A DNA stretch of 64,000 bases from an uncultured Clostridia bacterium (GCA_947628135.1 CANQYT010000010.1:151-64150), one strand, 5' to 3'. Numbered from the stretch's first letter, positions 1 to 25,480 are shown. Notes: generated by a model from the sequence alone, not told the origin. Numbers and translations are program-made.

Positions 1-101
1 ATGTTGAGTATTTTGCAAAATTACTGAAAAGCGAGATGATTGTTGCATAATCAAATCCTTTTCATAGGATTTGCTATGGAATAAAATTAAGGAGTCAGTA
101 T

Positions 102-716
102 ATGGCAGAAAAGGTGATTCGCTCACATAGAGCACGCGTCAAGCAGGCAAATGAAACGCTAAAGAACAATCCGCGATTTAAGCGTGAACGCATTTCGATT
201 ATCGACAGGGAAGCCTTTGTGGAATTTTTTCTTTTGGAGGATATTGTAAAATTATACAATATACGGCTAAGAGAGGAAAAAGCGTATATTCCTCGGGGAC
301 GTGCCGATGAAAAGGGGCGGCAGCAAAATATTGAAAAATTTTCCGCAATAATAGATGTTTTTAATGCGGCAATCGGTGCGGCAAGGTCCGCAATCAATTC
401 GGGAGATTACAAGCGCGTTTGGAAGGCGATTCACGAAGGTGCGCTGATGGCAACGGCTAATAGCGTCAGAAATTTGCCTGAATTGAAAAGGTTGGCAATA
501 GATTTGCTCAGAGAACTTTCTTCGGATATGACTTATTCTTTGGACGTGAGTCGGGAATTGGAGGAGGATCTCGATGATCTGGACGCTCACGAACAAAATG
601 TCCGTAAAGTCAAGAATCTTCCGCCGACAATGGATGAAATCGAAGAGGTCATCCGCGCGGCAGAAGCGGCAATACCGGACAGAAATAGAAACAGTAGAAT
701 AGATCCCAACACATAA
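102..716 (+). CDS. hypothetical alpha-helical protein (204 aa), basic N-half and acidic C-tail; possible second ESCRT-III-like subunit
   Basis: ORF with an AAGGAG RBS just upstream. First visible gene of a tightly packed same-strand operon. Same length and charge polarity as the adjacent Snf7-like ORF. Acidic helical tail EEDLDDLDAHEQNVRKVK...MDEIEEVIRAAEAA. No motif-level family match recognised. Confidence 0.6.
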   Translation: MAEKVIRSHRARVKQANETLKNNPRFKRERISIIDREAFVEFFLLEDIVKLYNIRLREEKAYIPRGRADEKGRQQNIEKFSAIIDVFNAAIGAARSAINSGDYKRVWKAIHEGALMATANSVRNLPELKRLAIDLLRELSSDMTYSLDVSRELEEDLDDLDAHEQNVRKVKNLPPTMDEIEEVIRAAEAAIPDRNRNSRIDPNT

Positions 717-2549: not shown

Positions 2550-3563
2550 TTGATCGATAAGGACAAAATTGCAACATACTACTCAAACGCACGGGAACTT
2601 GTTAAACAAAATAATCCCAAAGCGGCGAGGGCTTACGTTCTCGCCATTTTGAATTGTGCATTGGAAACATATCAAAAGGCAACTAAGATTTTGACAAAAG
2701 CCAAAACGCAAGCATTTTTGGACCAATGGATAAAAGTTTCTCGTGAACTTTACGACAAAGGTGTAACCGACTTTGTGTTAGGGTGTTTTGGTCTCCCCGT
2801 CAAGCAAGATTGTCAAGTTCCCAAAACAAAAGCCGATTCCGCGCAACAGCCGTCAAAATCTTCGTCGTCGCAAGGTAAGCCCGACACATCGTCGGTGGAT
2901 GAAGTAGACATTGCCGGTCTTGTTGAAGAGTGTGCAAAAACACAAGGTTGGTGTGCGGAGCAATTTGACAAGAACAAACGGGCTGTCGTGGAAATTTCCG
3001 CCTCCAACTCGCAAAAGAATTCGACCGGGACGGGATTTATCATATCGTCCAAAGGTTACTTGCTGACAAACGACCACATCGTATATGACGAAGACGCACA
3101 AGGTTACTATCCAAAAACCAAGATGTCACTTGCGGGAGGAAAAACCGTAAAGATCAACGTTCTGTTCTCCGACAAAAAGTCCGATGTGGCGCTTTGCAGT
3201 TTCGACCCCAATTCGGCGGGAAACTTCTCGGTGATCAAGCGAATCTCAGACTATTCTCGCGTGTTACAGGGAGCGGATTGCCTTGTGATAGGTAACGCTT
3301 TCGGTATGGGATTAGCGCCTTTTTCCGGTGTGGTTCGTTTTACAAAAAACGCCGAGGGAAATCTTGTGTATACTGCGCCGTCCAACCCCGGCGACTCCGG
3401 TGGTCCGGTATTGAACAGAAACGGCGAGTGCATAGGTATCAACAAGTCCAAGACGCTCACGGTGGACAATGTTTCGGCGGACGGCTACGTCAATGCAACG
3501 CCGATGGACAAAATTGAGGAGTTGCTGTACAAGTGGTGCGACGCAAACAACATTGAATTGTAA
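2550..3563 (+). CDS. cytoplasmic trypsin-like (S1/Trypsin_2) serine protease with N-terminal MIT-like helical domain
   Basis: TTG start with an AAGAGG RBS. Catalytic triad contexts: LLTNDHIV (His), SDVALCSF (Asp), GDSGGPVLNRNGECIGI (Ser). No signal peptide. N-terminal about 75 aa helical domain, then a Ser/Pro-rich linker carrying VDEVDIAGLVEE. Confidence 0.88.
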   Translation: MIDKDKIATYYSNARELVKQNNPKAARAYVLAILNCALETYQKATKILTKAKTQAFLDQWIKVSRELYDKGVTDFVLGCFGLPVKQDCQVPKTKADSAQQPSKSSSSQGKPDTSSVDEVDIAGLVEECAKTQGWCAEQFDKNKRAVVEISASNSQKNSTGTGFIISSKGYLLTNDHIVYDEDAQGYYPKTKMSLAGGKTVKINVLFSDKKSDVALCSFDPNSAGNFSVIKRISDYSRVLQGADCLVIGNAFGMGLAPFSGVVRFTKNAEGNLVYTAPSNPGDSGGPVLNRNGECIGINKSKTLTVDNVSADGYVNATPMDKIEELLYKWCDANNIEL

Positions 3564-3661: not shown

Positions 3662-4378
3662 ATGAAATATAGCATAAAAGAAGCAAAAGAAACAATTTTG
3701 TGTAATATTGATAGATTTCAGACAGATTCCAAGGAATTGTTACGAGTCGCTGTAAACTCACTCAATCGGTGTGGCGATGATTCGTCGCCTGTGTCAAGCA
3801 GATTAAACGACCTGTTGAACAATTTTTCAATCTTGGATGACTCCGGCAGGGAACGTTGGGCAGAAAATGTTTACATAGCTGTTGTTGCAATGAAGAGAAA
3901 AGATCTTTGCAAACAGGAAATCAAACAAAAGAATGGCAAAATAGATGGCGAGACGGCTCAGTGGATTACAACAGCGGTTCAAGGCGTGTTGGGGGTCGCG
4001 TCAGTTGTTTTTACGGTATTGTTTGCATTGGGTATTATCCCAAAAGATTCGTTTGGCGAATTGGGGGAAAATTCCGACGCATTTTATTATTTGATCGGAA
4101 CAATTTGTCAACAAGTTGTTGCATTTGTTATTGCGATTGTTATCGGTCTGTGGAATCGTTGTGTGATAAGAAAGAAATATGCCAACCAGACTTTCACATT
4201 TGAAGAACTTATGTCTGTCAAGTACGAAGGAAAACCCGTCAAATTTCTCATTCAACCGGTCACAAAGATGCTAAATGTAATGATTAGTATATTTAACTTT
4301 GGTGGTCAGACGATGGTAGTGGATAATCATGATGGCTCCAAGCCAACCGAATCGAATGAGGAGGAAAATAGCAGATGA
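3662..4378 (+). CDS. 2-TM membrane protein with N-terminal helical cytoplasmic domain (paralog of 11862-12647)
   Basis: GGAGGG RBS. Two hydrophobic helices (VLGVASVVFTVLFALGII and VVAFVIAIVIGLW). N-terminus MKYSIKEAKE and the WAENV motif are shared positionally with the 11862 ORF. Confidence 0.75.
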   Translation: MKYSIKEAKETILCNIDRFQTDSKELLRVAVNSLNRCGDDSSPVSSRLNDLLNNFSILDDSGRERWAENVYIAVVAMKRKDLCKQEIKQKNGKIDGETAQWITTAVQGVLGVASVVFTVLFALGIIPKDSFGELGENSDAFYYLIGTICQQVVAFVIAIVIGLWNRCVIRKKYANQTFTFEELMSVKYEGKPVKFLIQPVTKMLNVMISIFNFGGQTMVVDNHDGSKPTESNEEENSR

Positions 4379-6963
4379 CACAAAAAAAACAAACAAATAG
4401 AATATGGGCATTCGTCAATTTTGGAAGGCAGACAATTATAGATGGCGATTCGGCGTCGTTTTATAATTGTATGGAAGATATTCGTAAACAGTTGGCGCAA
4501 ATGGTGACCAAACAGGAGTTTCAGCAGTTTCAGAGTGCGATTAGTACACAACTTGGTAATTTACAACAAATTTGTAACAATATAAGTGACTTTAAACAAA
4601 AGAAAAAACTCGTTGATAAATTTGACGGAATGATACAATTGTTGCTTGAACAGAGTCAAGAGATACAAGCATGGACGCAACAAATCTCAAATATCAACGT
4701 GCAAAGTATGCTTGATGAGATTTCGGATGTTGCCACACAAGTCAAAGAGGAAATAAAAGACAAAAAAGAAAATCTTAAGAAACAGCAAACAAATCTTCAC
4801 AACGCAACCCAAAAAGCGCGTCCAAATAAAGAAGAGATTTTGCGTTATGCTGACATTGTACAGACCCAATCACCAGATGACTTTTTTGCAAAATTTTGTC
4901 AAGCACTTTACAGCGAAAATTATCGAGAGGCAATAGATTTTATAGATAAGATTGATGTTGAGCATCTCGAAAAAGATGTGTTAAAAGATACTCTCTGTTT
5001 TTTGATAAAGCTTATGCGCCGCGAATGGATTACACCTGCATCGGGGCTTATTGAACGTGCAAGTTTTGTTTTGGAAGATAATGAGGGTTCTTTTCGAGCT
5101 GCATATAGGACGCCATTTGAACAAAAAAAGAGACAAATTGACGAAAATGTTTACGGTATTCCGACGGGGCCATTTGTGTTTGTCGCTTATAATAGTGAAA
5201 ACGTTGTCCAGGTGTCGGAACTTGTTACATTTCTTGAAGAAACACCGGGCATCAAATGTTTTGTCGCTTTTAGAAATGTTGAGAATGGACTTGATAGCGG
5301 AGAATATATAGATAAACTTCACAAGGCGATGGAAAATTGCTCAATCTTTGTACTTTATTCGACATATAAGTCTCGCAACCAGGGCGGCTCCCTTGAAGAA
5401 ATGGAGTATATAATGAATGAAGATTACCATCGTGCTACACTAGCAGGAGAGCCCAAATATGACGCAAGAAGAGTCTACAGTGATCTTCCTGATGATTACA
5501 AAAAGCCCCGAGTGGAGTTTGTGCGGGAGACAAGACAATTAAATGAAAGAGACACCATTGCCGACAAGTTTTTTGGTACGACAACTCGTAGAACTGGAAG
5601 AGAGGAGTTGAAAAAAAGAATTCTTGAATTACTTCAGAACGAAAATCGCGACGATGCATCTACTCCGGAGCAAAGCGTGAAAGAAGCCCGTAAACCTACC
5701 GGAGATACGCACAAACACACCCCCAAACATTCGGCAAAACCCATAGTAGACAAAAAAAACAATGAGACTACGCAAAGCAAGTCTGATATAAATTCCTACG
5801 GCGAGCAAAAAAAAGAATCAGATTACAACAAGGAAGATGCCGAGAAAACGAGGATGAATCTGCTCTGCAAAAAAGCATTACGTGTTCTGTTGGAAAGAAA
5901 CGACGGCAAAGCTTCCATCGCGTCGATACAGCGCAATCTCGGAATAGGTTTCAACCGTGCGGGACGAATAATGGACACTTTACAGCGTTTGGGTTACGTA
6001 GAAACGCTTTCCCCAAGCGACCCGAGTTCCAAACCCTTGAAAGTGCTCATCACCCTAGAGGAGTTGGACGAACTGTTCCCTGATTTGAAAACGCAAGCAG
6101 TTGACCCCCCTATCCGATATACAATTACGTATTCCAATGTTAAAGGGGCAGCAAATTTCAATCCGACAGGTTACACAGTCAAAGATTTGCCCCTTGACGT
6201 CAAACCCATTGCAAAAGACGGCTATTCTTTTGTTGGTTGGTATGTTGATGAGGCTATGACAAAGGGTGTCACTCGACTTACGGAACAAGGCGACTATGTT
6301 TTGTATGCTAAGTGGATAAGACGGGTTGAACCAACCGACGAATTTTCAGAAGAAGCAAGGAAATACGTGTTGGGTTACACATCCGATGATATAGTGGACG
6401 GGTGTCTCTTATTCACCCCGAAGGCGGCTGGTAAAAGTTATGAGGTGCTAAAGTTACACAAGAGTGTGGAAAAATTGATTATTCCAAGGCAATTTGATGG
6501 ACTTCCGATAACAAGCATAGGCGAGAGGGCTTTCGATGGTTGTAGTAATTTGAAAGAAATAACTATTCCGAGCAGTGTCACAAGTATAGGCGAGTTGGCA
6601 TTCAGGGATTGCACCAATTTACAAACAGTGACTTTTGAGGACGACAGTAAACTACAAAGCATAGGCGATCTCGCTTTTAGCGGTTGTCACAATTTGCAAA
6701 CAGTTTATTATGGCGGGAGTAAGTACCAGTGGAAGAAAATTAAAATAGATTACAATGTTTCGATGTCGCCAAAGGTCAGACGCTATTACTTTTTTCATTA
6801 TTGGATCAAGTACCAGCGAAAGATACTTAGAGTATGTTACAGCAATTTTGCGTTGAAAAAAGCTAACCGCTATTATTATAGCGGGGAATTTCCGAAACGG
6901 AGCAAACGGTCTTTCTATTGGCATTGGGATGAAACAAAAACGCATCCGGTCATTTGGCAATAA
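4375..6963 (+). CDS. multidomain protein: coiled coil, TIR-like domain, FtsK-gamma winged helix, Listeria/Bacteroides (Flg_new) repeat, BspA-type LRR (LRR_5)
   Basis: ATGA overlap with the upstream gene and a GAGGAGG RBS. TIR-like block FVFVAYNSENVVQVSELVTFLEETPGIKCFVAFRNVENG...IFVLYSTYKSRNQGGSLEEMEY. FtsK-gamma signature SIASIQRNLGIGFNRAGRIMDTLQRLGYVE. Flg_new-like YTITYSNVKGA...GYSFVGWYVDEAMTKGV...YAKW. LRR_5 units IPSSVTSIGELAFRDCTNLQTV. No signal peptide or TM segment. Confidence 0.8.
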   Translation: MTQKKQTNRIWAFVNFGRQTIIDGDSASFYNCMEDIRKQLAQMVTKQEFQQFQSAISTQLGNLQQICNNISDFKQKKKLVDKFDGMIQLLLEQSQEIQAWTQQISNINVQSMLDEISDVATQVKEEIKDKKENLKKQQTNLHNATQKARPNKEEILRYADIVQTQSPDDFFAKFCQALYSENYREAIDFIDKIDVEHLEKDVLKDTLCFLIKLMRREWITPASGLIERASFVLEDNEGSFRAAYRTPFEQKKRQIDENVYGIPTGPFVFVAYNSENVVQVSELVTFLEETPGIKCFVAFRNVENGLDSGEYIDKLHKAMENCSIFVLYSTYKSRNQGGSLEEMEYIMNEDYHRATLAGEPKYDARRVYSDLPDDYKKPRVEFVRETRQLNERDTIADKFFGTTTRRTGREELKKRILELLQNENRDDASTPEQSVKEARKPTGDTHKHTPKHSAKPIVDKKNNETTQSKSDINSYGEQKKESDYNKEDAEKTRMNLLCKKALRVLLERNDGKASIASIQRNLGIGFNRAGRIMDTLQRLGYVETLSPSDPSSKPLKVLITLEELDELFPDLKTQAVDPPIRYTITYSNVKGAANFNPTGYTVKDLPLDVKPIAKDGYSFVGWYVDEAMTKGVTRLTEQGDYVLYAKWIRRVEPTDEFSEEARKYVLGYTSDDIVDGCLLFTPKAAGKSYEVLKLHKSVEKLIIPRQFDGLPITSIGERAFDGCSNLKEITIPSSVTSIGELAFRDCTNLQTVTFEDDSKLQSIGDLAFSGCHNLQTVYYGGSKYQWKKIKIDYNVSMSPKVRRYYFFHYWIKYQRKILRVCYSNFALKKANRYYYSGEFPKRSKRSFYWHWDETKTHPVIWQ

Positions 6964-18248: not shown

Positions 18249-18965
18249 ATGACCATCAGTACACAAAAAATAAAAAATCTGTTGCAACGCGAGGCAGTGG
18301 AAAGCGAAAACGAGGGGCAATATATGCTTCGTGCGAACTCAAAGTTGAAGCAAATTTTACACGATGCAGCGAGCGATTCATCCGACGTTGCGGCGGTTCA
18401 GACAATACGATCCTTTGTCGAGACGGACAAGGTAAGCAAGCGGAGGTTGTTGGCATATTGTGCAAATTTTGTTGATCCCACATCATCACACACACAAACT
18501 AACGCCCGTGATACACAAGTATGCTTGCACACATATTTGCAAAAGAGCGAACTATACAAATTGGTGGATTTTATCAACTTACATAGGCACGACACCACTT
18601 TTGGCGAGACCGTATACAACTTGATGAATCAACACGGAATGACCGCTCCGCAGGTGTACAAAAACGCGATGTTACGACGGCAGGATTTTGCGCGAGCAAC
18701 GGCTTTTGAAGGAGATTACAATGTTACGAAGCGTGTTGCTTGGCAAATAATCATCGGGTTGCATTGTAATTTGCAAGAAGCGGACGCCGTTTTATTCAGC
18801 GCGGGTTATTTGCGTCGTAAAAACGACGTGGATCTAATTATGGAGTACTTTATCAGTAGAGAAAACTATGATATTGCAGCAATTAACGCTGTTTTGTCCG
18901 ATCTGCAATTAAAAGAATTTCCGTGCTATGAGCCAAACAGACGAGGCGACCCATCACTCAAGTAA
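18249..18965 (+). CDS. putative HTH (XRE-like) DNA-binding protein
   Basis: AAGGAGAG RBS. The segment FGETVYNLMNQHGMTAPQVYKNAMLRRQDFARA...VAWQIIIGLHCNLQEADAVLFSAGY resembles a common Firmicutes HTH family (F.E.L..LI...GM.....YK.A...R..FSKI). Followed by a terminator. Confidence 0.6.
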   Translation: MTISTQKIKNLLQREAVESENEGQYMLRANSKLKQILHDAASDSSDVAAVQTIRSFVETDKVSKRRLLAYCANFVDPTSSHTQTNARDTQVCLHTYLQKSELYKLVDFINLHRHDTTFGETVYNLMNQHGMTAPQVYKNAMLRRQDFARATAFEGDYNVTKRVAWQIIIGLHCNLQEADAVLFSAGYLRRKNDVDLIMEYFISRENYDIAAINAVLSDLQLKEFPCYEPNRRGDPSLK

Positions 18966-19022: not shown

Positions 19023-19052
19023 GACGGAGTTAGTTACTCCGTCTTTATTTTT
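19023..19052 (+). terminator. intrinsic terminator ending island operon 1
   Basis: GACGGAGT-tagtt-ACTCCGTC stem followed by TTTATTTTT. Confidence 0.75.
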
Positions 19053-19410: not shown

Positions 19411-19974
19411 ATGGCTAATAACACAGAACCGTTTTCTTGGGAGTATTCACTTCAACACAACACCGTCAATATTTTCGGCACGATTGACGATGCAAAGGCG
19501 GAATTAATCATTGCCCAATTGCAGTATCTGGATAGCAAGGGCGCAAATGAGATCGTTGTACAAATAAACAGCCCCGGCGGAAGCGTATCGGCAGGGTTCG
19601 CTATTTACGACACCATTAATTACGTCAAGGCACGTATCGTCACCGTGGGGATAGGTATGTGCGCCAGTATGGGGGCATTTCTTCTCTCGGCGGGGAGTAA
19701 AGGCTGTCGTAGGGCTACGGAAAACTGTGAAATATTGATTCACCAACCGCTTGGGGGTGTAAGTGGACAGGCATCCGATATGATTATTGCAGCCGATCAT
19801 ATCAAGCGTATGCGGGATCATATAAATCGTATTCTTGCCGTTAATACGGGACAAACAGTAACGAAAATCAAAAAGGATACGGACCGCGATAAAATTATGA
19901 CTGCGCGTGAGGCCCTTGAATATGGGCTCATCGACAACATTATTATGTCCGTCAACAAAGCACAAGGAGAATAG
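19411..19974 (+). CDS. clpP: ATP-dependent Clp protease proteolytic subunit (island-encoded paralog)
   Basis: Classic ClpP sequence. Catalytic contexts: GMCASMGAFLLSAG (Ser), ILIHQPLGG (His), DTDRDKIMTAREALEYGLID (Asp region). Confidence 0.93.
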   Translation: MANNTEPFSWEYSLQHNTVNIFGTIDDAKAELIIAQLQYLDSKGANEIVVQINSPGGSVSAGFAIYDTINYVKARIVTVGIGMCASMGAFLLSAGSKGCRRATENCEILIHQPLGGVSGQASDMIIAADHIKRMRDHINRILAVNTGQTVTKIKKDTDRDKIMTAREALEYGLIDNIIMSVNKAQGE

Positions 19975-19977
19975 TTT

Positions 19978-21621
19978 ATGAACAACAGTCTTTATGAATT
20001 GTTTTTGACTGAGTACTTCAAACAGGTCGCAGCACTTGGACCGTTCTGCGGCAAAAGAGCATTTGATTTTCTCGCGAAAGTCTTTCTGTTGCCGCGAGAG
20101 ACAGGGGACGCGTTGTGGCAAGCGGTGGAGCAAGAGACTGTCGCCGATGTCGTAACATTGGAAGATTCCAATCGATTTAAGCGTATTTTGCAACTTGGTT
20201 CGATAAACGGTATTCCCCTCAACGTCTCGGAGCAGAATATTCGAATGGTTTCCATAAAAAGCAGTGCCATTGCGGAAATGTCTGCTATCGATATGTGTGC
20301 GGAACGAAACGTCACCGTATCCCAAGTACTGCAAAATTTACATAGTCACGCATCACAATGTTACGTAAGCGCAATGTATATTTGGGGCACAATGCAATGT
20401 GATGGAAACGCGGCATTGTCAGTAGACAAGCGTTTCGAAAAAGGCGTGACTGATATTGAAAAAGCCGCACACTGGGGCTATATTCCTGCAATACTAACAA
20501 TACTTTATTATCTGAGTAACGGAGATAAGTATCCTGTGAATCAAATCGGACACTCATCGGAATATTATCAAAAGTTACTCTATACATTTGCTGTCAACTC
20601 CCCATATTGTGATTTGCTGTCGGCGTTAAATTTAAAGCAGAGTAAACAATCTCAAAGCGCGCAATTGCTTTTGGGGCTAATTGCACAACGGAAAATAAAG
20701 GCGGAGATTTTCGACAAGTCCATTGCCAAAGTTGTGTACGGAGACACGATAGACATTGTCGCAAAAGAAAAGTTGTTGTCAGATGCCGACGTAAAGATCA
20801 TATCGGAGATGGCGATTTTGCCAATGCATTTATTGCGAGGAACTTATGAGATAGGAGCGGGCTTTTTTTCGTCGCTGCCATTTATCAATCGAGACGTCGA
20901 ACAAAACGTGTTGCGTGGCGAACTCAATCATTTGGGGGATTTCTTTTTTGAGCAGAGAAAACCTCTCTGTCTTTGTTGTGAGGATAAATTCGTTTTGGAT
21001 GCGTACAGACAAGGATTCGAGAAAATGGAAATAGACAATCCAAAACCGCAACACGTCGTAACGATCGATGTCGGTGAGTTGTCCGATGAAGATCTGCAAC
21101 AGAATGCAGACAACATATTTGTTGCCAATTGCAAAAACAACGCACACAACGTTTATTTGTTCGTTTTGCAAGGGAACGTCTCGTCCGACAAAATCAACGC
21201 AGTCAAGTTTTTTTTAAAAAGCAACAAGCGAGCAAAGTTCAAACTCAATAAACCGTCAGTCACATTGGACTTAAGTCCTATCGTTCCAATATGTTTTTGT
21301 GACAAACAAAATGCCAATAAGCTTTCAGGTTTCGTCAACACGCAAATGGTGGCGACTCTATCTGTGGAAGAGCGCAAACGTATACTGAAACAGAGGATAC
21401 AAGATGTCAATCGCAGATTTAAGGAAGTATCAAGGCGTGTTGTCGACAGTGACATCGACCTGCTGTCTCGCCATCCGTTGGATATCGCCTTGATGGCGTT
21501 GGACAAGTTGTATTCAGAATGTTCCTGCAGCGATGAAAAAGATTTGAAAGGGATCGCTTTCTATATCGCGGAAGTTGAAAAATATCACAACGGTAATCGC
21601 GGTTATGGTTTTGGAGGTTAA
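19978..21621 (+). CDS. hypothetical protein with Sel1-like repeat region; C-terminal half possibly a degenerate AAA+-like fold
   Basis: AAGGAGA RBS. Sel1-like segment YVSAMYIWGTMQCDG...DIEKAAHWGYIPAILTILYYLSNGDKY. C-terminal region (VYLFVLQGNV...LSVEERKRILKQRI) has no Walker A. The fold call is speculative. Confidence 0.6.
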   Translation: MNNSLYELFLTEYFKQVAALGPFCGKRAFDFLAKVFLLPRETGDALWQAVEQETVADVVTLEDSNRFKRILQLGSINGIPLNVSEQNIRMVSIKSSAIAEMSAIDMCAERNVTVSQVLQNLHSHASQCYVSAMYIWGTMQCDGNAALSVDKRFEKGVTDIEKAAHWGYIPAILTILYYLSNGDKYPVNQIGHSSEYYQKLLYTFAVNSPYCDLLSALNLKQSKQSQSAQLLLGLIAQRKIKAEIFDKSIAKVVYGDTIDIVAKEKLLSDADVKIISEMAILPMHLLRGTYEIGAGFFSSLPFINRDVEQNVLRGELNHLGDFFFEQRKPLCLCCEDKFVLDAYRQGFEKMEIDNPKPQHVVTIDVGELSDEDLQQNADNIFVANCKNNAHNVYLFVLQGNVSSDKINAVKFFLKSNKRAKFKLNKPSVTLDLSPIVPICFCDKQNANKLSGFVNTQMVATLSVEERKRILKQRIQDVNRRFKEVSRRVVDSDIDLLSRHPLDIALMALDKLYSECSCSDEKDLKGIAFYIAEVEKYHNGNRGYGFGG

Positions 21622-21627
21622 AACGCA

Positions 21628-23328
21628 ATGAGGTTCTCAAATGAAATTATTCAGGGGTATGAAAACACCGAACTTAAACACTATGGCCAGTTACTGGCAA
21701 ACTCGCCACAATTAGTGCCGTATAGCGATCTCGCGAGTAGAGAGATCACCGGCGCATTAAAAGCGTGCTTTCGCATCGATAATGACCTGTATCTGATGTT
21801 TTCCAATGGAGATATGCACGTTGCAGTCGTAGCAACTACCGGCGGCGGAAAAACAACACAATATGTTTTTCCAACTATTCTCGCGTTTGCTCATGCACAC
21901 ACCAAACGCTCTCTTGTTATATCCGATCCAAAAGGTGAGGCGTATCGAACGACTGCAATCACTTTGCGCAATGAGGGATATGATGTTCTTTTGGTCAATT
22001 ACAGAGATTTTCTTTATAGTGAGTGTTTTAATCCGCTGACGCACATTTTTGATAAATATATGCGCGTTCATAATCTTGAAGACGAAGTTGATGTGGTGGA
22101 AACCGCCAATGGGTTCAGAAATAAGTTTATGGGGGTGATATACGAGTCGCAAAGGGAACTTGACAAGGCTGTTGCGCGTATGAAAAAACTTCTTGAAGAG
22201 GACGTCGCTAACGATATTGACACAATTGCCACAATTTATGTCGCAATTGAAAATTCGCGCGATCCTTATTGGCATGAGGCGGCTCGCGATCTTTTGAAAG
22301 CATGTATTTGGGCTATGTTGGAGGATATAGATCCGCAGCAAGAGGGTGTCGAACCAATCACAAGAGATACATTCAGTTTTCGAACGATGTTATCCATTAT
22401 GGATAATCTTGTGGACGATGACGGAGATCATTATAGAGACGGGGGCTATTTTTCCGATCGCCCGGCAAATTCACGAGCGTATATGTTTGCCAAAAATACC
22501 ATTTTGGAAAACGGTCGTCCGACTCGCAAATGTATTGTGAGTATGCTCAATACGGCGTTGTCCGTATTCAAAACAAGCACAATAAAATTGCTGACGAGTT
22601 GCAACAGTTTTGATTTGGATGTGCTTACAAACAGCAATCGGCCCGTAGCAATTTTTATTGACTATAAAGATGAAGACAGAACTCACTACAAAGTAATCAG
22701 TGCATTTATACAGTCGGTTTATATGCACTTGATTCAATATGCCAACAGCCAACCCACAGGCAAATTGAATATCCCGTTTTACTTCATTTTGGATGAGTTT
22801 GGCAATTTCCCGATCATAAACGACTTCGACACGGTGATCTCAGCCGCACGTGGACGCAACATCTATTTTATACTGGTATTACAGTCTTGGGCGCAGTTGG
22901 AAAATATTTACGGACGTAATACGGCAGAGATAATCAAGGACAATCTGAATTTGCATATATTTATCGGGAGCAACAACCCACCGACAATTGAGGCGTTTTC
23001 CAGAGAATGCGGGTTGACAACAAGGTTTTCCCCAACCAGTGCACTCAGCGGACGTGGTGGTGAAATAGAGAATTATCAAATAGAAACTATTCCGCTTGTT
23101 CCTCAAAGTAACTTAACAAAACTTCAGGTTGGAGAAGCCATAGTAACAGAAGCCAAATGCGGATATGTAATGCTCTCTAAGTTGGAACGACACTATCTTT
23201 GTGCCGAGTTTGAAGGTTTGCCTACTGCGGATTATAAAAATTATAAGTGCAAATTGAGCCCGCTGGATGATAAGTATGAATACCATTTTACGCCTCGCAA
23301 AAAGTTCAGACGGCAATTTTTTGGCTAA
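21628..23328 (+). CDS. TraG/VirD4/TraD-family type IV coupling-protein-like ATPase, lacking N-terminal TM segments
   Basis: Walker A VAVVATTGGGKTTQYVFPT. Also SLVISDPKGEAY, CFNPL, Walker B FYFILDEFGNFP and ILVLQSWAQLENIYG, which are typical of T4CPs. No hydrophobic N-terminus. Confidence 0.85.
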   Translation: MRFSNEIIQGYENTELKHYGQLLANSPQLVPYSDLASREITGALKACFRIDNDLYLMFSNGDMHVAVVATTGGGKTTQYVFPTILAFAHAHTKRSLVISDPKGEAYRTTAITLRNEGYDVLLVNYRDFLYSECFNPLTHIFDKYMRVHNLEDEVDVVETANGFRNKFMGVIYESQRELDKAVARMKKLLEEDVANDIDTIATIYVAIENSRDPYWHEAARDLLKACIWAMLEDIDPQQEGVEPITRDTFSFRTMLSIMDNLVDDDGDHYRDGGYFSDRPANSRAYMFAKNTILENGRPTRKCIVSMLNTALSVFKTSTIKLLTSCNSFDLDVLTNSNRPVAIFIDYKDEDRTHYKVISAFIQSVYMHLIQYANSQPTGKLNIPFYFILDEFGNFPIINDFDTVISAARGRNIYFILVLQSWAQLENIYGRNTAEIIKDNLNLHIFIGSNNPPTIEAFSRECGLTTRFSPTSALSGRGGEIENYQIETIPLVPQSNLTKLQVGEAIVTEAKCGYVMLSKLERHYLCAEFEGLPTADYKNYKCKLSPLDDKYEYHFTPRKKFRRQFFG

Positions 23329-23613
23329 TCCGGGCGGGAGGTAACCAGGCAGGATACTTGTGGGCATTGTGCGGTAAATCAAACAATGATTTAATTGCCC
23401 AATGACTGAATTGTTAAGTAAAGACTATAAATTAAAACTTCCTGCTTTTGGTAATTACAAATTCGATTTGTCAAACTTTGCGCTAAGCAAAAGCCTAATG
23501 GACATTTACTCAACGTGTGTTCGTGCCGCAAAAGAAGTTATACGTACAAGTTCGCGGTGTAAGTATTTCGTGAATTTGCGGCACTCCAAAATATAACATC
23601 AGGAGAATACAAA

Positions 23614-24666
23614 ATGACCGGAAAAATAAATTTAATGCAAGAATTATTGAAGCGCAAAACTTTTTCCATTCCTATGGTTCAAAAAGAACTCGGCATAAGT
23701 TATAAGGAACTGCGTAACAACGTGAAAAATATGGAAGAAATGGGGCAGGTAACTTTGACTGATGATGATTTGAACTATATCGTTGTTAATGAACCCCAAA
23801 TCAAATTCAAATCGTCGAAAAATAACTGTGCGACTAACAGCGTGAACAATCGCTATTCTCAATCGGAGAAATCAAAGTCGGATTTATCAATATGGCTCTG
23901 TGATGATGAGGATGAGGAGGACGATGAGGATGAGGAGGACGATGAAGATGATGAGGATTGTGATGACGACCAAAACACGCTCGACGAAACAATCAGCCGT
24001 CGTCGCCGTGAAATTCTTGAACGCCTTGCTCGATTAAATGAAGAAGATGAGGAAGATAGCGATTCCGATAAAACGAGTTGTCAGTTGAAAGATGACGGCA
24101 ACCGATTGGCTGAATATGTTTCCGAAGAAAAAAACTGTAAGATGATAGACGGTATAAATTATTTCGATGATGTGAATAAGGCCAAAAAAATAATAGATAA
24201 AATTGGAAAAAGCGGATATAAACTAACGCTCAGAGCTATTCAATATGGTACAGCAACGACAAGATATGTTTTTCATTACCCTACGCAAGATCAAAATATA
24301 AAGGACATAAGCCGACTCACTGCGGATGTTGGTTCGACAATTAAGGCAGACAATGTAAGAATCGTTGCACCTTGGTATGGAGATATGGTTTGTGTTTTAG
24401 TACAGCACAATGTCACGTTTGATTCTTTTAGCAAAAAAGCCCTTCTTTATTGGGTTATGCGCAACAGCGGTCGAGTCTCAATTTCGTCATTACAGCGTGG
24501 TTTGGGTATTGGGTTTAACCGAGCCGGCAGGATAATGGAACATTTGCAAAAAATCGGTTGTGTCGAACAGTTGTCATCACGCGATGATATTTCCAAACCC
24601 ATAAATGTAAAAATGACAGTACAGGAAATCAATATTTTGTTTCCCGGATCGCTGGGGTGGCGTTGA
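23614..24666 (+). CDS. FtsK-like protein with alpha and gamma domains but no motor (beta) ATPase domain; N-terminal wHTH and poly-acidic tract
   Basis: AGGAGAA RBS. Acidic run DDEDEEDDEDEEDDEDDEDCDDD. FtsK-alpha-like YGTATTRYVFHYPTQDQNIKDISRLTADVGSTIKADNVRIVAPWYGDMVCVLV. Gamma signature ISSLQRGLGIGFNRAGRIMEHLQKIGCVE. No P-loop. Confidence 0.8.
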   Translation: MTGKINLMQELLKRKTFSIPMVQKELGISYKELRNNVKNMEEMGQVTLTDDDLNYIVVNEPQIKFKSSKNNCATNSVNNRYSQSEKSKSDLSIWLCDDEDEEDDEDEEDDEDDEDCDDDQNTLDETISRRRREILERLARLNEEDEEDSDSDKTSCQLKDDGNRLAEYVSEEKNCKMIDGINYFDDVNKAKKIIDKIGKSGYKLTLRAIQYGTATTRYVFHYPTQDQNIKDISRLTADVGSTIKADNVRIVAPWYGDMVCVLVQHNVTFDSFSKKALLYWVMRNSGRVSISSLQRGLGIGFNRAGRIMEHLQKIGCVEQLSSRDDISKPINVKMTVQEINILFPGSLGWR

Positions 24667-25051: not shown

Positions 25052-25423
25052 TCAATCCGCGTCGTCGTTTTTGACGCGGAACGCCTTTTCTTCCAGCAGT
25101 CTTTCCGCATAGCCGGATACCGCGGCGACGCCCAATTCGTTCAGCGCGCTGCACTCTTCGGCAAGGCGCAACACGTCGGGGCGCAATGCGCGCTCTCCTA
25201 TGTTGACTTGATGTACGATCAATTTTTTGTCGGTGCACGTCCTGCCTATCAGATAGTCCACGGTCACCCCGAACAAGTCGGCAAATTCCATCAAGGTGGA
25301 CAGCGACGGTTCGCGCCGTCCGTTTTCGTATGCCGATACGGTCGATTCGGCAATGGACAGCCTGTCGCCAAGCGCTTTCATAGTGAGATTGTTCGCTTTC
25401 CTCAATTCTTTTATTTTTAACAT
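25052..25423 (-). CDS. XRE-family HTH transcriptional regulator
   Basis: MLKIKELRKANNLTMKALGDRLSIAESTVSAYENGRREPSLSTLMEFADLFGVTVDYLIGR. Start chosen at 25423, which has a GGAGAG RBS. The ORF track extends to 25453. Confidence 0.88.
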   Translation of the reverse strand: MLKIKELRKANNLTMKALGDRLSIAESTVSAYENGRREPSLSTLMEFADLFGVTVDYLIGRTCTDKKLIVHQVNIGERALRPDVLRLAEECSALNELGVAAVSGYAERLLEEKAFRVKNDDAD

Positions 25424-25480
25424 ATTTTCTCTCCGAACCGAGTATAATTCCACGAAATATTATGCGCAATGCAAAAAAAG

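Follow-up and report, generated by a model that had tools for sequence, protein, structure and literature searches.

A recurrent gene cassette of gut bacteria that encodes a ClpP paralogue, a Lon-like protein, a soluble coupling-protein-type ATPase and an FtsK-like protein

The locus

This study concerns four genes in a 64,000-nucleotide stretch of DNA from an uncultured Clostridia bacterium (the window, bases 151-64150 of contig C10) that together form what we refer to as the cassette. In order, they encode a private paralogue of the protease ClpP, a 547-residue protein that we term the adaptor, a ring ATPase resembling the type IV coupling proteins (T4CPs) of conjugation, and a protein with FtsK-type domains; all four open reading frames (ORFs) are present exactly where the first-pass annotation of the window had placed them (Table 1). 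The genome (G000; 1.66 Mb in 26 contigs, 95% complete) is from a rabbit gut metagenome. Nine metagenome contexts and 80 loci from species-representative genomes were compared with the window, gene order being compared in ~85 loci, and these loci, designated by L numbers where they need to be told apart, are from Christensenellales, Anaeroplasmataceae/Coproplasma, Erysipelotrichales and other gut metagenome-assembled genomes. Co-occurrence of the cassette genes in other genomes is strong across the ~85 loci, as expected if the genes form the unit that the first-pass annotation had taken them to be.

Table 1. Features of the cassette and its surroundings. Positions are those of the window unless a contig is named.
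Feature	Position (nt)	Strand	Remarks
ClpP paralogue, 187 aa	19411..19974	+	PF00574, 215 bits
Adaptor, 547 aa	19978..21621	+	Helical N-domain with Sel1 repeats, predicted LonA-like AAA+ module, disordered C-terminal tail
Sel1 repeats of adaptor	~20320-20517	+	Family profile positions 115-178
Predicted LonA-like AAA+ module of adaptor	~20875-21597	+	ATPase motifs absent
Tyr543-Gly544-Phe545 codons of adaptor	21604..21612	+	Candidate ClpP-docking motif in C-terminal ...RGYGFGG
T4CP-like ring ATPase, 566 aa	21628..23328	+	Basic, aromatic C-terminal tail
Walker A of ATPase	21832-21855	+	ATTGGGKT, residues 69-76
Walker B of ATPase	22780-22797	+	YFILDE, residues 385-390
Motor-less FtsK derivative, 350 aa	23614..24666	+	Soluble
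N-terminal gamma-like winged helix-turn-helix of last protein	23614-23793	+	
Acidic tract of last protein	23902-23970	+	Residues 97-119
FtsK alpha domain of last protein	~24160-24405	+	Residues 183-264 (AF2 model)
FtsK gamma domain of last protein	~24415-24639	+	Residues 268-342 (AF2 model)
Putative XRE/Cro-like helix-turn-helix regulator, 238 aa (g14-like)	18249..18965	+	Homologues directly upstream of ClpP or adaptor gene in 22 loci
Terminator-like hairpin followed by T-run	19023..19043	+	Pattern scan only; between upstream gene and four-gene unit
Second FtsK gamma domain, in TIR/LRR protein encoded at 4375-6963	5869..6051	+	PF09397, 46 bits; residues 499-559
XRE-type helix-turn-helix gene	25052..25453	-	PF01381, 62 bits; right edge of low-GC island; cassette membership uncertain
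Tyrosine integrase	C8:81063-82025		Directly upstream of island, at its left end

Proteins of the cassette

The private ClpP aligned with Staphylococcus aureus ClpP over 163 residues (185 bits) and retains all three catalytic motifs, GMCASMG (Ser), IHQP (His) and DTDRD (Asp), the columns of the Ser-His-Asp triad being kept in 56 of 56 cassette ClpPs. Where the host's housekeeping ClpP has IPMVID...YDIYSRLL (canonically IPxVI...YDIYSRLL), the cassette ClpPs have a conserved N-terminal EEFSxQYSL. Positions Y60, Y62, F112 and L114, which belong to eight residues that we take to be the IGF pocket of Escherichia coli ClpP, are mostly T, Q, R/S/A and T, respectively, and are polar in most members, leaving the cassette ClpPs with neither the canonical N-terminal axial-loop sequence nor the hydrophobic IGF-binding pocket. 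In the housekeeping ClpP of the host, encoded in a separate clpP-clpX operon on contig C12, Y62, F112 and L114 are kept and position 60 is Ser. By these alignments the private ClpPs constitute a distinct group with an intact triad and a remodelled docking pocket and N-terminal gate, a pattern that would fit an insulated adaptor-ClpP pair.

A single adaptor sequence had no match in Pfam, which holds no family for this protein. The C-terminal half had been suspected in the first-pass annotation of being a degenerate AAA+ fold, and profile and structure comparisons both bear this out. A profile of 46 homologues matched Sel1-repeat structures over positions 115-178 (E 3.9e-9) and LonA AAA+ modules over positions 395-505 (E ~1e-3), and the top 50 Protein Data Bank (PDB) matches returned by Foldseek for the AlphaFold2 (AF2) model (pLDDT 89, pTM 0.82) were almost all LonA AAA+ modules, including the three-helix-bundle fragment. 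A Walker A-like pattern is missing from 82 of 86 adaptor locus homologues and from 140 of the 143 family representatives, the Walker B strand has no acidic pair, and the protein stops ~10 residues past the lid helices, the S16 protease domain being absent. We therefore describe the C-terminal half, on the strength of profile and model, as a predicted LonA-type AAA+ fold that has degenerated and lost its ATPase motifs. The adaptor family was recovered by a full scan with a hidden Markov model, which gave 273 clusters at 50% identity (E <= 1e-30), nearly all of 525-560 aa; a word-indexed search returned 9 matches only.

The adaptor ends in a tail that is disordered in the AF2 model and in which Gly544 is invariant and Phe545 nearly so in the alignment. 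A hydrophobic residue followed by Gly and Phe or Tyr lies in the last 0-14 residues of 142 of 143 full-length representatives, usually with Gly-Gly after it. The ClpP-docking loop of the host ClpX reads AGLGFGN, and the adaptor tail thus reproduces its x-G-F-G core, making it a candidate ClpP-docking motif as predicted from sequence. The first-pass annotation had suggested looking for an IGF or LGF loop on this protein; a docking element of that kind does exist, but as a near-invariant C-terminal tail and not as a loop, and the [LIV]-G-[FL]-type tripeptide present in the adaptor family has Y or F as its first residue in most members.

The ATPase matched three Pfam families (PF02534, E 3e-44; PF12696, E 7e-26; PF10412, E 6e-18) and the Cag5 structure (PDB 8dol), and just reaches the NCBIfam model 'VirD4-like, CD1115 family' (NF045973; 250.1 bits, cut-off 250). 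It has the nucleotide-binding domain and the TraG/TrwB-type domains of coupling proteins, and Walker A and Walker B motifs are present in 85 and 89, respectively, of 89 family members. The description of this protein as a coupling-type ATPase that lacks a transmembrane (TM) anchor held: its highest 19-residue hydropathy is only 1.03 (family median 1.39), so there is no TM segment at the N-terminus or elsewhere. Close relatives of the ATPase number more than 600, and the nearest plasmid T4CPs, which are of the CD1115 family, have no more than 31% identity to it. The plasmid T4CP that we examined (pCd5_2) is a 729-aa protein with two N-terminal TM segments (hydropathy 2.3-2.4) and adjoins a pLS20-type conjugation membrane protein. 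At their C-termini the ATPases of loci L002-L089 mostly have a basic stretch and then an aromatic-acidic-aromatic end (such as PFDF, WDF or DDLF), that of the window (23280-23328) ending in RKKFRRQFFG, and invariant basic residues were observed in the helical half of the adaptor. The ATPase tail may serve to dock on the Sel1 domain of the adaptor, and since these tails are basic and then F-D-F-like and the helical half of the adaptor has its invariant basic residues, a tail-in-groove contact is suggested.

The last gene of the cassette was annotated at first pass as encoding FtsK alpha and gamma domains, a winged helix-turn-helix (wHTH) and a 23-residue acidic tract, with no P-loop, and each of these elements was confirmed. 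The match to FtsK_gamma (PF09397) is clear at 58.8 bits, with further Foldseek and phmmer matches to the gamma structures 2ve8, 2ve9 and 2j5p. The match to FtsK_alpha (19.2 bits) is under the Pfam cut-off, the alpha domain being supported by alignment to full-length FtsK-like relatives and by Foldseek matches to FtsK alpha/beta structures (E 2.5e-5). Twenty-two residues of the acidic tract are Asp or Glu and the other is Cys, and no P-loop was found in the protein. In the AF2 model a winged helix at residues 1-60 (pLDDT ~96) is followed by disorder (63-117), an alpha-like region (183-264) and the gamma domain (268-342). Comparison with FtsK gamma domains indicated that the recognition-helix residues are kept, as IGFNRAGRIME aligns with the IGYNRAAR(I/M)IE of E. 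coli and Pseudomonas aeruginosa FtsK, a stretch that includes the Asn, Arg and Glu residues by which the FtsK-orienting polar sequences (KOPS) are read.

Among relatives the gene after the ATPase varies considerably, from 213 to 861 aa, and may encode either a gamma domain or two, or else a soluble FtsK with all its parts (alpha, motor and gamma), as seen in L007 (precomputed Pfam), L022 (Pfam) and L025 (domain layout of the profile alignment); the FtsK motor domain was found in last-gene homologues of L007, L019, L022 and L026. In the alignment to the full FtsK of L007, the alpha domain of the window protein (residues 190-256) joins the gamma domain (270-344) directly and ~310 motor residues are gone, identifying the window version as a motor-deleted derivative, a form also seen in L002, L011 and L080. 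The idea that the motor and DNA-reading parts of one machine had been split between two polypeptides was therefore only partly upheld: the window gene is indeed motor-less, but many of its relatives are complete soluble FtsK proteins. What is almost always common to the gene is an N-terminal wHTH of ~60 residues, and we regard this gamma-like wHTH, from the alignments, as its constant element. A 285-nt gap (23329-23613) precedes the last gene, and because the L011 relative shares only its final ~40 nt the gene may have its own promoter. The gap contains a 64-aa ORF (23402-23596) that lacks conservation among relatives and is unlikely to be a gene.

Conservation and genomic context

The adaptor gene is immediately upstream of the ATPase gene in all loci uncut by a contig end except L020, where no match to it was found, and the two genes are tightly spaced or, often, overlapping; they form an obligate pair that is probably translationally coupled. 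A ClpP gene precedes the pair in 58 loci (~two thirds), and a wHTH gene is downstream of the ATPase gene in almost all. Strong matches to the adaptor came from 13 of the 300 further genomes of the order that were sampled and, with the window's own counted, from three of seven in the genus. This sparse distribution, together with a second copy in the window's genome, indicates that the cassette is accessory. The second, paralogous cassette is split over contig ends (C1:224536-225898 and C9:1-3405): ClpP and the adaptor's N-terminal part are on C1, and on C9 are the remainder of the adaptor (tail PYGFGGY), the gene of a T4CP-like ATPase (895-2592) and a wHTH gene (2596-3405). Its chromosomal context is as in L006, with NAD synthase and TrmB upstream and a single-stranded DNA-binding protein downstream.

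The window cassette lies in a low-GC island that extends from base 1 to ~25,500 (GC 0.39-0.45, versus 0.51-0.57 in the remaining window), in which every large ORF is on the + strand and at whose right edge, at ~26 kb, GC climbs from ~0.42 to 0.54. Contig C10 begins just 150 nt left of the window, and a related metagenome contig (L106) joins its start to the end of C8, another contig of this genome, which carries the tyrosine integrase and, upstream of it, host genes for an ABC sugar-transport ATPase and two pullulanase-like lipoproteins. The overlap of C8 and C10 is ~77 nt, window positions 1-251 being the junction stretch. Four other assemblies (L103, L104, L105 and L107) break at the identical position, with 251 nt left to the first gene of the island, and this shared break suggests a repeat or population heterogeneity at the left junction of the island. 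A search for att-type direct repeats of at least 13 nt between the integrase end on C8 and the right island edge found none, and in promoter and terminator pattern scans the site numbers were not above shuffled expectation.

The first-pass annotation had noted that conjugation genes immediately left of the window would make this an ordinary transfer module. An integrase and then host genes are found there, and the 95%-complete genome has no VirB4-type AAA_10 domain and no relaxase of the three families searched, Relaxase (MOBP), Rep_trans (MOBT) and MobA_MobL (MOBQ); this composition of the left flank and genome disposes of that possibility. Relaxase, VirB4 and mating-pore genes were likewise absent from nine Pfam-annotated contexts and from the ten annotated most recurrent neighbour clusters (~80 loci), leaving the ATPase with no genetic linkage to any of them. 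We thus rejected an ICE (integrative and conjugative element) or other transfer module on the basis of the absent TM anchor, the distance from plasmid T4CPs, the absence of VirB4 and relaxases and the host genes to the left. A phage origin was also rejected, since the adaptor had no match among 50,697 phage records or in PHROGs, and no capsid, portal or tail genes are recurrently found beside the cassette.

Several kinds of gene recur as co-directional neighbours of the cassette, namely the g14-like regulator (22 loci), DUF1292 (20), TIR-LRR_5 (15), metallophosphoesterase (14), an FtsH paralogue (10), Macro-ASCH (7) and HAD_SAK_2 (6), with AbiEii, Cas3, Fic and a vWA-kinase set each seen at a single locus. 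In the flanks of L010-L089, one TIR-LRR_5 protein carries a nitroreductase domain. The g14-like protein of the window has no Pfam match and five of 23 members of its family have weak matches to HTH_26 or HTH_31; with a conserved C-terminal half that resembles Cro/C1-type helix-turn-helix domains, it is probably an XRE/Cro-like regulator. The sole match in PADLOC-DB 2.0 was of the ATPase to mad8 (28 bits), and because the mad8 model also picks an ordinary ABC-F protein at 66 bits this is generic P-loop similarity; with that match set aside and no PADLOC family fitting, we rejected a known anti-phage system. The Menshen NsnA proteins with a T4SS-DNA_transf domain (PMC12065111) belong to a different system.

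The second FtsK gamma domain that had been noted at about 5850-6080, in another operon of the island (operon 1), was found there (Table 1), and the gamma part of the last-gene profile also picks it. The Snf7-like/AAA/trypsin core of operon 1 is directly beside the cassette in four of ~80 loci (L022, L026, L035 and L052), the Snf7-like and trypsin genes being present in all four and the AAA gene in three (E 1e-10 cut). Genes of the operon 1 type may be upstream or downstream of the cassette, and in L052 they form one tight co-directional array with it. The compact joint arrays (L052:555-11010, L035:1823-10443, L022:5725-17704 and L026:5806-15460) combine ESCRT-III-like, Vps4-like AAA, trypsin and RuvB-like genes with the ClpP/adaptor/T4CP/FtsK-like cassette in either order, and RuvB-like genes flank the cassette in L007, L035, L052, L080 and L084. 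From its gene content the window island looks like an expanded version of these arrays, with LRR, TIR and Hsp70-like insertions. Among the 300 other genomes of the order, seven have a Snf7-like gene, 13 have the cassette and three have both, against 0.3 expected, although only one of those three has them within 12 kb. The cooperation of the cassette with operon 1 that had been envisaged at first pass consequently stands as a linkage that recurs, but one that is facultative, since most cassettes stand alone.

Discussion

We propose that the cassette is a self-contained, non-conjugative accessory unit on an integrase-bearing island and that its products may form a DNA-guided proteolytic machine that acts in conflict with mobile DNA, a reading to which we assign a probability of roughly 50%. 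That DNA handling is coupled with proteolysis, as the first-pass annotation had surmised, is the best reading of the locus because the adaptor has a degenerate AAA+ fold and a docking-type tail, the genes co-occur strongly and there are no conjugation genes to the left. The view that the opponents would be phages, plasmids or other mobile DNA is based on the patchy distribution of the cassette, its two copies in one genome, its variable last gene and its TIR-LRR, Macro and Abi/TerY-like neighbours.

The adaptor would form a ring that docks through its tails on ClpP, using the private ClpP where there is one and the housekeeping ClpP where there is not, and would also be held to a hexamer of the T4CP-like ATPase. 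That hexamer, which would be the only active motor in the cassette as found in this window, would then either supply the protease with a substrate (a protein bound or linked to DNA) or switch it on, with the FtsK-gamma/wHTH partner picking the DNA or nucleoprotein target. In its most specific form, as the first ClpP machine with a RecA-like T4CP hexamer for a motor, a dead Lon ring for a bridge and FtsK gamma domains for aim, which would destroy proteins attached to incoming DNA by binding or by a covalent link, such as relaxases and terminal proteins, as a defence against plasmids or phages, the proposal is a tentative one, and we consider the odds to be against it by some way.

A number of points weigh against such a machine. 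We know of no RecA-like FtsK/HerA-class ATPase of the T4CP type that partners ClpP, nor of a precedent for a six-fold dead AAA+ ring between a motor and ClpP. One third of cassettes are missing a ClpP of their own. The adaptor tail is Y/F-GF in 56 of 57 non-redundant loci with a private ClpP and I/L-GF, the canonical form, in 15 of 21 without one, but the Fisher value of 2e-10 for this association is only suggestive because a phylogeny-aware test on the ATPase tree has just seven independent contrasts, with three to four concordant and zero to one opposite, and is not significant. In L082 (7953-10373) the ATPase is fused at its C-terminus to a wHTH domain (an 806-aa ORF and a 799-aa database entry), and this fusion, although a real ORF, is weak evidence as a singleton, found in one cluster on one contig. 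The sequencing runs that contain the stretch are all DNA runs of rabbit-gut metagenomes, with no RNA run among them. No system-specific model of PADLOC-DB 2.0 matches the cassette, and the neighbour genes are a suggestive conflict context whose domains are generic.

Chief among the alternatives is that the ATPase senses or switches and does not pump substrate. The dead Lon-like ring would in that case be a protein analogue of the acyldepsipeptides (ADEPs), which mimic IGF and deregulate ClpP: on detection of foreign DNA by a DNA-sensing ATPase/wHTH pair, the x-GF tails would dock on ClpP and open it, and unchecked proteolysis would arrest the infected cell (abortive infection). The adaptor, having no ATPase motifs, could not unfold substrates itself, the canonical I/L-GF tails of the ClpP-less variants would suit the housekeeping ClpP, the private ClpPs have no canonical gate sequence, and the patchy distribution and conflict-type neighbours are as expected. 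Neither the tight spacing and overlap of the ATPase and adaptor genes nor the need for a private ClpP with a remodelled pocket is explained, however, and we regard this alternative, the sensing role of the ATPase included, as possible at about the level of the most specific form of the proteolytic machine or slightly below it.

Less probable than a ClpP trigger is a function in the upkeep of the island itself, in which the T4CP-like and FtsK-like proteins would handle the DNA of the element (in segregation, resolution, excision or replication control) and ClpP and the adaptor would tune the level of a regulator. The integrase of the island, the gamma domains of the sequence-reading FtsK type, the full FtsK motor in some relatives and the recurrence of an XRE-like regulator as a neighbour are all in keeping with this. 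It is made unlikely by the many cassettes whose surroundings are ordinary chromosomal genes (such as a V-ATPase operon) and that have no integrase within 8-10 kb, by the presence of two copies in one small genome and by the hypervariability of the last gene, an unusual trait for a gene with a maintenance role.

In some virus lineages DNA is packaged by ATPases of the FtsK/HerA class, and the cassette could be pictured as a head-maturation-like ClpP, a packaging ATPase of this class and a small-terminase-like wHTH that derive from a phage or a capsid-less satellite. The private ClpP does match PHROG head-maturation protease families (best 141 bits), and one relative has a terminase gene and a portal gene at a distance of ~6 kb. 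The protein is nonetheless nearer to cellular ClpP, by its Pfam score and by its 214 bits for ClpP subfamilies versus 94 bits on the head-maturation model (cut-off 120), and with an adaptor foreign to phage records and no recurring virion genes we consider a viral derivation very improbable. The least probable explanation is a module for conjugation or mobilisation (an ICE or an integrative and mobilisable element) that has decayed or is incomplete and whose T4CP-like protein still transfers DNA through a pore encoded elsewhere, for although the ATPase is in the VirD4/TraG superfamily, just at the CD1115 cut-off, and the island has an integrase, the protein has no membrane anchor where the nearest conjugative relative examined has two TM segments, its identity to plasmid T4CPs is low, the genome has neither VirB4 nor the relaxases searched for, and what it is universally partnered with is a ClpP adaptor rather than a relaxase.

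The cassette was not found described in the full-text literature (in which few subscription journals are covered), in PADLOC or in Pfam, and is thus apparently a widespread but undescribed component of gut bacteria. To our knowledge, ClpP works only with AAA+ partners of the Clp/Hsp100 family, and T4CPs are known to us in no other role than that of gatekeepers, at the membrane, in conjugation and effector secretion. If the proposed DNA-guided proteolytic machine is real, it would give energy-dependent proteolysis a new architecture, coupling-protein ATPases a new task in the cytoplasm and the antibiotics that activate ClpP a natural protein counterpart. As a defence system it would add an effector logic based on a protease and, for gut Clostridia, a candidate mechanism against plasmids, and its recurrent linkage to an ESCRT-III/Vps4-like operon would join two unusual machineries in one immune island.

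Comparison with known systems

The cassette shares with ClpXP, ClpAP and ClpCP a ClpP with an intact Ser-His-Asp triad and a partner of predicted AAA+ fold that presents a hydrophobic-Gly-Phe(-Gly) element with the same core as the host ClpX loop. It differs from them in that this partner is Lon-type and has neither Walker A nor Walker B, the docking element is a C-terminal tail, the only active motor would be a RecA-like T4CP ATPase, and the pocket and gate of ClpP are remodelled. Compared with LonA, the adaptor has in common the three-helix bundle and the AAA+ alpha/beta and lid module, whereas the S16 protease domain and the Walker motifs are missing from it, its Sel1-repeat N-domain replaces the Lon N-domain, and its protease would be provided in trans as ClpP. 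Lon relatives that are inactive as ATPases are known in the LonC type.

Similar likenesses and differences exist for the other two proteins. The ATPase has the nucleotide-binding and all-alpha domains and the Walker A and B motifs of the CD1115-family T4CPs of pLS20-type conjugation, but lacks their TM anchor, is encoded beside a pseudo-Lon adaptor (one locus excepted) and has no adjoining transfer genes in the contexts examined. The last protein has the alpha and gamma domains of FtsK/SpoIIIE with the recognition-helix residues kept, and relatives of it carry the full motor; unlike FtsK/SpoIIIE it is soluble and, in the window, motor-less, a gamma-like wHTH at the N-terminus and an acidic linker are additional to it, and it is encoded behind a T4CP-like ATPase.

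A further parallel, as a functional analogy only, is to the Sir2-HerA and DUF4297-HerA defence complexes, which unite a HerA ring ATPase and a multimeric effector enzyme and are encoded in sporadic accessory operons. The cassette likewise combines a ring ATPase of the FtsK/HerA superfamily with a potential effector in a patchy accessory operon, although its ATPase is of the T4CP clade and its effector would be a protease that is reached via an adaptor.

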